A DNA stretch of 4,387 nucleotides from IMG/VR virus record IMGVR_UViG_2648501396_000003; one strand, given 5' to 3'. The notes beneath the pieces are model-generated. The model searched no databases. It was given only the letters and a program-made list of their open reading frames with translations, and was not told the DNA's origin. Shown here one piece after another: positions 1-4,387 of this stretch (the stretch's first letter is position 1; each line of letters begins with the position of its first letter). Source of the DNA: a virus (lineage: Duplodnaviria > Heunggongvirae > Uroviricota > Caudoviricetes). Position numbers and translations under genes: made by a program.

Positions 1-393
1 GCGCAGAGCACTGGCTGGCCTTCCGTCACGCATCCGGCACTGAACAATGCACCGGCGGTGAAAAACACGGTTGACCTGCCGACGTGGGAAGAACTGACTG
101 ACATTCGCGACACACTGAATACGGCAATTGATAAGGAGTTGTCCCGTACAACCAGTGATGCGCTGTTTCTGGCGCTGCGCCGGGTGAAAGCAGATCTGAA
201 TGCGGATATCAACACGCGCCTTGAACAGTCTGCACGGATCATTCAGCGCACACCGGATGAGGTTTTACCCGCGCTGGTGCTGGCGGCGACCTGGTTTGAT
301 AACGCGGCGCGTGACGCGGACATTATCCGGCGTAATGCCATTACGCATCCCGGCTTTGTGCCGGTGATCCCTCTGAAGGTGCCAGTGCAATGA
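1..393 (+). CDS. 3' end of a gene truncated by the window start; probably a DNA circularization protein (Mu N/gp43-like), C-terminal ~130 aa
   Basis: Frame 1 is open from nt 1 with no stop until TGA at 391-393, so the listed ORF 58..393 (GTG start) is the tail of a longer upstream gene. The assignment rests on synteny only: it sits immediately upstream of a Mu gp44-like hub gene and its stop overlaps that gene's start (ATGA at 390-393). Confidence 0.5.
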   Translation, partial: AQSTGWPSVTHPALNNAPAVKNTVDLPTWEELTDIRDTLNTAIDKELSRTTSDALFLALRRVKADLNADINTRLEQSARIIQRTPDEVLPALVLAATWFDNAARDADIIRRNAITHPGFVPVIPLKVPVQ

Positions 394-2017: not shown

Positions 2018-2442
2018 TGGAACTGTGGCTGACGGTGAACGGTAAACGCACCTGCGCCAGCGCACAACTGGATCCGCTGACCCGCGCCGTGGTGATTTCC
2101 CTGTTTACCTGGCGGCGGGCGGAGCCTGATGACAACGCCGACGTCCCGATGGGATGGTGGGGGGATACCTGGCCTGCGGTACAGAATGACCGTTACGGCT
2201 CCCGACTGTGGCTGCTTCAGCGCAGCAAACTGACCAATCAGCTGGTGCAGACGGTAAGGGGGTATATCCGCGAATGCCTGCAATGGATGATTGATGATGG
2301 CGTGGTGTCCCGTATTGATCTGGATATCCGCCGCACCGGGATTAATGAACTGGGTAACAGTATCACTCTCTGGCGTCGTGACGGACCGGTAATGATTTCT
2401 TTTGATGATCTGTGGAGTGCGATAACGCATGGCGGACAGTGA
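2014..2442 (+). CDS. Phage GP46-family baseplate wedge protein (Mu gp46-like), 142 aa
   Basis: ORF of the expected size (~140 aa) in the expected position between the spike and baseplate-J genes. The start is an ATGATG doublet (2014/2017) overlapping the upstream TGA (2015-2017); GGAGG at 2008-2012 favours ATG 2017 as the real start. Confidence 0.7.
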   Translation: MMELWLTVNGKRTCASAQLDPLTRAVVISLFTWRRAEPDDNADVPMGWWGDTWPAVQNDRYGSRLWLLQRSKLTNQLVQTVRGYIRECLQWMIDDGVVSRIDLDIRRTGINELGNSITLWRRDGPVMISFDDLWSAITHGGQ

Positions 2443-3490
2443 ATTTCAGCGCCCGACGCTGGCAGAAAATATCAGTATGCTCCGTAACGATTTATTCGCC
2501 AGGCTGGACGTCAGCGACACGCTCCGGCGCATGGATGAAGACGTGCGGGCAAAGGTGTATGCGGCGGCGCTGCATACGGTTTACGGTTACATCGATTATC
2601 TGGCAATGAACATGCTGCCTGACCTGTGCGATGAGTCCTGGCTGGCGCGACATGCTGCGATGAAACGGTGTCCGCGCAAGGGGGCCACGGCTGCCAGCGG
2701 GTATATGCGCTGGGAAGGTGTCAGCGATGATGGCCTGAAGGTGACCGCCGGGAGTGTTATTCAGCGCGATGACCTGGTTCAGTACACGGCAACTGCCGAT
2801 GCAACCAGCTCCGGTGGTGTCCTGCGCGTGCCGATCGCCTGCTCAAGTGCAGGCGCGGTCGGTAACGCTGACGACGGTACGGCATTAATCCTGGTCACGC
2901 CGGTGAATGGTCTGCCGTCTTCCGGTGTGGCTGACACCCTGACAGGCGGATTTGATACTGAAGAGCTGGAAACGTGGCGCGCCCGCATCATTGAGCGGTA
3001 TTACTGGACGCCGCAGGGCGGGGCTGACGGGGACTATGTCGTCTGGGCTAAAGAAGTGCCCGGCATTACCCGCGCATGGACATACCGTCACTGGATGGGA
3101 ACGGGAACTGTCGGTGTGATGATTGCCAGCAGTGACCTGATTAATCCCATTCCGGAAGAATCAACGGAAACGGCAGCAAGACAACACATCGAGCCACTGG
3201 CCCCGGTGGCAGGCTCTGATTTGTATGTATTCAGGCCGGTGGCACATAAAGTGGATTTTCATATCCGCGTGACGCCGGACACACCAGAAATACGAGACGC
3301 CATCACCGCGGAGTTGCGTTCGTTCCTGCTGCGTGATGGTTATCCGCAGGGAGAACTGAAGGTATCGCGTATCAGTGAGGCGATTTCCGGTGCGAACGGG
3401 GAATACAGCCATCAGTTGCTTGCACCGGCAGACAATATCTCCATTGCAAAAAATGAACTGGCGGTACTGGGGACGATTTCATGGACGTGA
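2429..3490 (+). CDS. Baseplate J-like protein (Mu gp47 / P2 gpJ family), 353 aa
   Basis: 353-aa ORF whose start overlaps the upstream gene by 14 nt. Length, position and general sequence character fit the baseplate J family; this is recognition from memory, not a search. Confidence 0.85.
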
Positions 3491-4066
3491 CAAACGATGA
3501 TTACATCCGTCTGTTGTCAGCACTGTTACCACCCGGTCCGGCGTGGTCAGCCAGAGATCCGGCGATTGCCGGTGCGGCACCGTCATTAACCCGCGTTCAT
3601 CAGCGTGCGGATGCCCTGATGCGGGAGCTGGATCCGCGCACCACCACTGAACTGATAAACCGCTGGGAGCGTCTGTGCGGTCTGCCGGATGAATGTATTC
3701 CCGCAGGGAGCACAGACCCTTCGCCAGCGTCAGCAACGGCTGGATGCGAAGGTTAACCTGGCGGGCGGCATCAACGAGGATTTTTATCTTGCACAGCTTG
3801 CTGCCCTGGGCAGACCAGATGCCACCATCAAGCGATACGACAAAAGCACCTTCACCTGCTCATCGGCCTGTACTGACGAGGTGAACGCGCCGGAATGGCG
3901 GTATTACTGGCAGATCAACATGCCAGCCGCCACCAACACCACCTGGATGACATGTGGCGATCCCTGTGATTCCGCACTGCGTATATGGGGCGACACAGTT
4001 GTCGAATGTGTGCTTAACAAACTCTGCCCGTCGCATACCTACGTAATTTTTAAATATCCGGAGTAA
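3481..4066 (+). pseudogene. DUF2313 / YmfQ-like baseplate wedge protein (Mu gp48-like), interrupted by an apparent +1 frameshift
   Basis: Two overlapping ORFs in different frames: 3481..3756 (frame 1, 91 aa) and 3689..4066 (frame 2, 125 aa). The span is 586 nt, one more than a multiple of 3. Frame 1 reads protein-like up to '...[16 protein letters not shown]' and then ends in a short low-complexity tail; frame 2 has a stop at 3656-3658 and reads protein-like from about '[19 protein letters not shown]...' onward. Joining them near 3706-3712 gives a 194-aa product. The start overlaps the baseplate-J stop (ATGGACGTGA). Confidence 0.65.
4058..4062 (+). promoter_or_regulatory. Ribosome-binding site for the tail-fibre gene
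   Basis: CGGAG, 7 nt upstream of ATG 4070, just before the TAA stop (4064-4066) of the DUF2313 gene. Confidence 0.4.
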
Positions 4067-4069
4067 TCC

Positions 4070-4387
4070 ATGCATCGTATAGACACGAAAACCGCGCAGA
4101 AGGATAAGTTCGGCGCGGGTAAAAACGGTTTTACCCGTGGTAACCCCCAGACCGGCACACCTGCCACCGATCTGGATGATGACTACTTTGACATGTTGCA
4201 GGAAGAACTCTGCAGCGTGGTGGAGGCATCCGGTGCCAGCCTGGAGAAGGGGCGGCACGACCAGCTGCTTACCGCGCTTCGTGCGCTGCTGTTAAGCCGC
4301 AAGAATCCGTTTAGCGATATCAAATCGGATGGCACGGTGAAAACGGCTCTCGAAAACCTTGGTTTGGGAGAAGCGGCAAAACGGAAT
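4070..4387 (+). CDS. Tail fibre protein, N-terminal 106 aa (3' end beyond the window)
   Basis: RBS CCGGAG/GGAG at 4058-4062, 7 nt before ATG 4070. Frame 2 is open from 4070 to the window end with no stop; it is absent from the ORF track only because it has no stop in the window. The N-terminus '[25 protein letters not shown]...[14 protein letters not shown]' matches what I recall of the conserved baseplate-attachment domain of enterobacterial prophage side tail fibres (e14 StfP-like). Confidence 0.75.

Follow-up and report, generated by a model that had tools for sequence, protein, structure and literature searches.

Gp48 of phage Mu is baseplate wedge protein 3, which is present once in each wedge heterotetramer and bears the loop onto which the fibre N-terminus docks (PMC11915804). 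Its gene, together with E. coli ymfQ, belongs to the PF10076 (DUF2313) family, and in the tail modules of Shigella phages SfV, SfI, SfII and SfIV and in E. coli e14-type modules it shares a DNA identity of 95.9-96.7% across gene and flanks with the window analysed in this study (the whole stretch of DNA, 4,387 nt in length). The gene order of SfV-type modules, N-P-gp45-gp46-gp47-gp48-fibre, is also that of the window; no biological difference separates the two, and the window appears as a blend of two such modules. As in Mu gp48 and YmfQ, both halves of the ymfQ product match the family profile, and an overlap with gp47 followed by a tail-fibre gene is found as in SfV, whereas the deposited reading frame is broken after codon 76.

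Two other kinds of described system resemble the window. Tail genes of prophages do decay in E. coli, the e14 remnant being one example, and a module that is intact but for one frameshifted structural gene has the look of early decay that genuine prophage pseudogenes show; in contrast to such pseudogenes, the lesion described here is predicted by a consensus rule and its flanks are not a possible natural haplotype. Collapsed-repeat or mixed-haplotype assembly artefacts share with the window a short contig bounded by phage genes and, at its right end, stopping where the copies lose similarity, a spurious indel where alleles align with gaps, and a deterministic choice of bases. The usual artefacts of this kind are homopolymer indels or ambiguity codes, whereas in the window the ambiguity has silently been turned into plain bases, giving a clean-looking record that yields RefSeq proteins. 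Comparison with related loci makes it very probable that the extra base in ymfQ is an assembly artefact, produced when two slightly different intact prophage copies were merged into one consensus.

The baseplate module and the split ymfQ gene

A baseplate module of the Mu type occupies the plus strand of the window. Its first gene, the 3' part of a DNA-circularization gene (Mu N/gp43-like; called at 1-393, plus strand), is truncated by the contig start and is annotated as 'DNA circularization protein' in the homologous loci L001, L002 and L003. Intact genes follow on the same strand for the baseplate hub (Mu gp44/P-like; 390-1469; 359 aa; Pfam GpP-like_1st, Gp44-like_2nd and GpP_4th; baseplate hub in the SfV annotation), the baseplate spike (Mu gp45/V-like; 1469-2017; 182 aa; PF06890 Phage_Mu_Gp45, E = 1.5e-24) and baseplate wedge 1 (Mu gp46-like; 2014-2442; PF07409 GP46, E = 5.8e-33). 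The baseplate wedge 2 gene (Mu gp47/Baseplate_J; 2429-3490, plus strand; 353 aa; PF04865, E = 2.4e-53) is a composite of two alleles and overlaps ymfQ by 10 nt (3481-3490). Downstream of ymfQ, the constant N-terminal part of a tail-fibre gene starts at 4070 and is truncated by the contig end (4070-4387, plus strand); homologous loci annotate it as tail fiber, StfP or short tail fiber protein. The position of ymfQ, after and overlapping gp47/Baseplate_J and before the tail-fibre gene, is the same in E. coli BCE049, SfV and YZ3-11.

As deposited, the ymfQ/Mu gp48-like baseplate wedge 3 gene (3481-4066, plus strand) has 586 nt, against 585 nt (194 aa) in both inferred source copies. The ORF listing divides it between a 91-aa ORF in frame 1 (3481-3756) and a 125-aa ORF in frame 2 (3689-4066), both on the plus strand. 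Sequence and ORFs show a stretch open in both frames (3659-3756, plus strand), which follows the frame-2 stop TAA at 3656-3658 and ends with the frame-1 stop at 3754-3756. Each half matches Pfam PF10076 (Phage_Mu_Gp48) above the gathering score (cut-off 37.4), and the two matches are complementary: the N-terminal half scores 46.0 bits over profile positions 3-63 and the C-terminal half 39.9 bits over positions 60-149, so that together they cover positions 3-149 of 150. A single unbroken polypeptide of about 180-195 aa, as found in Mu gp48 (9ki1_a, 180 aa) and in L010 and L011 (194 aa each), two loci from a panel of 80 related IMG/VR loci with which the window was compared, is absent from the deposited window.

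The frame-1 product consists of 76 native residues followed by 15 that are out of frame. In alignments with the intact 585-nt genes of BCE049 and SfV, the surplus base falls at window position 3710, GGGA[G]CACAG; with the second common allele (YZ3-11/L011 type) as reference, it is the A at 3705 that is surplus. Once the extra base is removed, a 194-aa protein results, of which residues 14-192 align with the solved Mu gp48 chain 9ki1_a. The split gene is therefore confirmed as genuinely present in the deposited sequence.

These observations bear out most of what an earlier note had described. The identity of a DUF2313/YmfQ/Mu gp48 baseplate gene stands on the PF10076 matches and the Mu gp48 alignment, and the length of 586 nt, split across frames 1 and 2 by exactly one extra base, on the ORF listing and the alignment to 585-nt genes. 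Additionally, the shift was correctly placed at about 3700-3715, the repaired product of 194 aa has the length of intact homologues, and the lesion is isolated, all other genes of the window being intact. The same note had pointed to a short G run as the location of the fault, which did not survive alignment: the extra G sits between A and C and extends no run. A homopolymer sequencing error was rejected for the same reason, as no run is lengthened.

Homologues and occurrence of the allele

The same region occurs, 96-99% identical, in approximately 1,400 complete genomes of E. coli and in 12 phage records (SfV, SfI, SfII, SfIV and others). In every match listed, 701 query bases correspond to 700 bases of the record, and the annotation shows one YmfQ-family CDS; the deposited ymfQ is one base longer than about 1,400 intact 585-nt homologues. 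Single 194-aa CDSs represent the gene in the roughly 1,400 E. coli genomes, in the 12 phage records and in 592 viral contigs. The ymfQ module was found at 1,561 places in 1,399 genomes, with up to 3-4 occurrences in one genome.

The frameshift allele itself is known only from a single submission series. No exact match to the 71 nt around the site was found in the 1,359 complete-genome E. coli records carrying the gene, a 39-mer at the site had no match among GTDB species representatives, and the allele occurred in none of the 83 other loci compared. The exact 91-aa product is on record on just two contigs, JHRC01000106.1 and JHRD01000101.1, in a search that included a 15-billion-protein collection. 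The former (GCA_001265295.1; 4,387 bp) is identical to the window, which thus represents the full length of a short contig from a draft assembly of E. coli. The latter (GCA_001265315.1; 4,383 bp) is a sister contig from the same submission series and carries the frameshift too.

The sister contigs differ at seven positions (505, 1522, 1996, 2066-2067, 2086 and 2298). Six of these differences are standing polymorphisms among related prophages, and the A at 505 is private to the window. At the sites of difference, the alphabetically lower base is carried by one or the other assembly; these may be sites that were called mixed in one assembly and not in the other.

A genuine two-gene arrangement, which the earlier note had raised as the pattern that would overturn its interpretation, was rejected because E. 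coli, SfV and related phages have a single CDS of 194 aa here, and the two halves lie on one chain in the solved Mu gp48. A related proposal is that programmed +1 ribosomal frameshifting, or two separate polypeptides, makes the split gp48 functional. Family-like sequence is indeed kept in both halves, and an ATG opens the frame-2 ORF at 3689. Against this, the arrangement is not conserved: all annotated homologues have a single CDS, the allele occurs in 0 of the 1,359 complete-genome records, and Mu gp48 is one chain. Direct reading of the window sequence revealed no recognisable +1 shift motif and no Shine-Dalgarno sequence before 3689, and since the upstream ORF ends 65 nt past this ATG, translational coupling is unlikely. 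A functional split gp48 of this kind is therefore considered exceedingly improbable, and the recoding event that the earlier note had listed as its least favoured option is not borne out by any conservation among homologues. Equally little credence is given to the compound case in which the 586-nt gene exists in the cell, through insertion or misaligned allele exchange, and also yields a working wedge protein through +1 recoding or as two polypeptides.

Two parental haplotypes in the contig

Two panel loci account for the sequence of the window between 2660 and 4372. L011 is the closest relative of the window overall, and L010 is an intact natural locus that shares a rare feature of the window gp47 gene; both encode an intact 194-aa YmfQ. 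The shared feature is an in-frame GAT at 2726-2728 (SDDG vs SDG), which is missing in 77 of the 79 panel loci covering the site and found in L010. The GAT codon duplication is therefore a real, rare variant of one of the two copies, coming from the L010-like copy. The L010 haplotype had no exact match among complete E. coli genomes, the best match reaching 99.0% and lacking the GAT.

Within 2660-4372, the positions at which the window mismatches L010 do not overlap with those at which it mismatches L011, and no position is unlike both parents outside the frameshift site. A three-way MAFFT alignment of this interval contains 57 informative columns and 29 switches of parental origin, some of them 2-3 nt apart (3187/3190/3192 and 3295/3297/3298). 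In that alignment the gap is placed differently, giving two apparent violations at the frameshift site, which the pairwise alignment of the parents resolves. With 29 parental switches in 1.7 kb, recombination is not the source of the mosaic. Over 2660-4372, the window is a blend of two haplotypes and not the sequence of one DNA molecule.

At the frameshift, the parents differ in a variable patch at codons 74-77 (3702-3712, plus strand), where the BCE049/L010 allele reads CCCGCAGGGACACAG (PAGTQ) and the YZ3-11/L011 allele reads CCGGCGGGAGCGCAG (PAGAQ). These two natural alleles differ at five of the twelve positions in codons 74-77. When they are aligned with gaps, one column is occupied only in the L010 type (the A at 3705) and one only in the L011 type (the G at 3710); the window keeps both, which gives the additional base. 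The gapped alignment at the site is the single optimum under both megablast-like and CLC-like scoring, and the consensus taken from it is the 43-mer of the window. A simple recombinant of the two alleles was rejected at this site, as an origin pattern of 1,1,2,1 within 11 nt would be required.

The alphabetical base-choice rule

The choice between the parental bases follows a simple rule, which was formulated as taking the alphabetically first base (A<C<G<T) at each mismatch and keeping the base wherever one copy is gapped. The window has the alphabetically lower base at all 24 of its differences from L010 and at 37 of its 40 differences from L011, including 27 of 27 within 2660-4372. For natural loci compared with their nearest neighbours, the fraction of lower bases had a mean of 0.50 and a maximum of 0.75 (n = 53), whereas the two contigs reached 0.92 (window) and 0.90 (sister). 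Compared with the whole panel, the lower-base score was 0.72 for the two contigs vs 0.51-0.57 for four natural loci tested alike.

Applied to the pairwise alignment of L010 (1,712 nt) with the corresponding 1,709 nt of L011, the rule reproduces window positions 2660-4372 at 1,713 of 1,713 nt, extra base included, and it also yields the sister contig exactly. The alternatives performed less well against the window. The opposite (maximum) rule left 51 mismatches, and either parent on its own left 24 (L010) or 27 (L011); among 20,000 sequences with parental bases chosen at random site by site, even the closest had 13. To the left of window position 2660, where L010 begins, the panel allowed only partial modelling: over these 2.6 kb, the best panel pair under the rule leaves 8 mismatches (from 13), and 24 of 29 informative sites obey it. 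Over 2660-4372, the contig shows what distinguishes a collapsed consensus: its bases come from two observed natural haplotypes, their origin switches too frequently, and a deterministic, non-biological rule reproduces the sequence.

The regularity also bears on a biological route to the same mosaic, in which very fine-scale gene conversion or mismatch repair between co-resident prophages would have produced a real molecule and a misaligned heteroduplex the frameshift. Such a process would fit with every base of 2660-4372 coming from one of two natural haplotypes and with the presence of co-resident copies in many genomes. A preference defined by the alphabet is, however, a property of software: A is preferred to G, and C to both G and T, yet G is preferred to T, and we know of no repair process that always picks the alphabetically first base. 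Additionally, known conversion tracts are far longer than 2-3 nt, the distance that separates some of the switches seen here. This route is accordingly given hardly any weight.

Proposed origin of the extra base

The collapse of two prophage copies into one consensus would have proceeded as follows. Tail modules from two related prophages of the SfV/e14 type would have been collapsed into one pile-up of a draft assembly; the two were probably co-resident in the sequenced strain, a mixed sample being less likely. The consensus would then have been called column by column under a fixed rule, with the alphabetically first base taken at differences and a base preferred over a gap. At ymfQ codons 74-77, common alignment scoring would have preferred two mismatches and one offsetting 1-nt gap per allele, and with both gap columns kept, 16 nt would stand where each allele has 15, giving an apparent +1 frameshift. 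A rule of this kind could stem from a consensus caller, some of which settle ties in A, C, G, T order; an identical pattern would also arise if IUPAC codes were replaced by their first member. We infer that both copies reside in one genome, although a mixed culture would look the same; co-resident copies are plausible because the module occurs up to 3-4 times per genome. Judged from the sequences of the two parental loci, baseplate wedge protein 3 is most likely encoded intact, at 194 aa, by both real copies.

The main competing explanation is a genuine insertion of G at 3710 in an L010-type ymfQ of a real prophage, which would cut wedge protein 3 after 76 native residues, probably abolish fibre docking and mark a decaying prophage. 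An inactivating mutation with a possibly defective prophage tail had been the lead interpretation in the earlier note. In its favour, the deposited sequence contains the extra base, as does another assembly of the same submission series, no adjoining homopolymer invites a classical 454 or Ion Torrent error, and decay of E. coli prophage tail genes is established. A frameshift shared by both sister assemblies would normally speak for a real mutation; under a deterministic rule such sharing is expected, provided that both strains carry the same two prophages. Several findings oppose a genuine insertion: the flanking 1.7 kb is no possible real haplotype (29 switches; 51 of 51 alphabetically lower bases), the allele is found in no other genome searched, and the artefact rule, which has no free parameter, derives both the inserted base and its position exactly from two intact alleles. 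A slim chance is left to the genuine insertion, and the inactivating mutation gives way to a rule that reproduces the lesion from two intact alleles. Of the causes named in the earlier note, an assembly indel is retained, with the homopolymer mechanism replaced by a per-column consensus of two collapsed prophage alleles.

If the extra base is such an artefact, no single read is expected to contain the 16-mer of the window, CCCGCAGGGAGCACAG. Likewise, to the right of 4372 an L010-like continuation would read …GGGAGAATTATCTCTGG… and an L011-like continuation …GGGAGAAGCGGCAAAACGGAATGTGGG….

Ends of the contig

The right end of the window coincides with a repeat boundary (4372-4387). L010 and L011 are 96.5% identical in the 600 nt before 4330 and 54% identical, a random level, in the 600 nt after 4372. 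Past 4372, the window follows the L011 type for 15 nt and stops at 4387, and the sister contig stops at 4383. Collapsed repeats usually behave in this way at their boundaries. At the left end, where the second parent is lacking, locus L022 loses all similarity approximately 50 nt upstream of window position 1, within the DNA-circularization gene, which hints at a module junction near the left end of the contig.

Many IMG/VR contigs, L006 among them, end about 309 nt after the ymfQ stop, at the same point as the window and where the similarity of haplotypes falls to a random level. Here the constant N-terminal part of the fibre gene appears to meet exchangeable fibre modules. In BCE049, a pinE invertase lies downstream.

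Consequences for sequence records

The frameshift is almost certainly no real feature and does not show that a phage gene is broken or recoded. A clean-looking public draft contig without ambiguity codes that is a synthetic blend of two prophages is an issue of data hygiene. Because the contig blends two alleles, all proteins called on it are chimeric, and chimeric proteins are now in the databases; the 91-aa fragment of YmfQ is one example and the 353-aa gp47/Baseplate_J protein WP_052921838.1 (a UniRef entry with n=3) another. Counts of pseudogenes, judgements of prophage intactness and catalogues of alleles that draw on contigs of this kind will be wrong. A cheap, read-free flag for blended contigs is provided by the alphabetical-bias test.

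One further IMG/VR locus, L079, has the lower base at 7 of 7 differences from its nearest neighbour, L059; small as this number is, L079 may be another collapsed-consensus contig.

Many YmfQ fragments of 74-80 aa labelled 'partial', from draft genomes of E. coli, Shigella and Salmonella, fall into the same 90%-identity cluster as the 91-aa product. These fragments stop at …IPA, …IPAG, …IPAGT or …IPAGTQTL, corresponding to window positions 3700-3720 (codons 74-80). Many assemblies thus seem to break at this variable patch, a pattern consistent with frequent co-residence of diverged copies.
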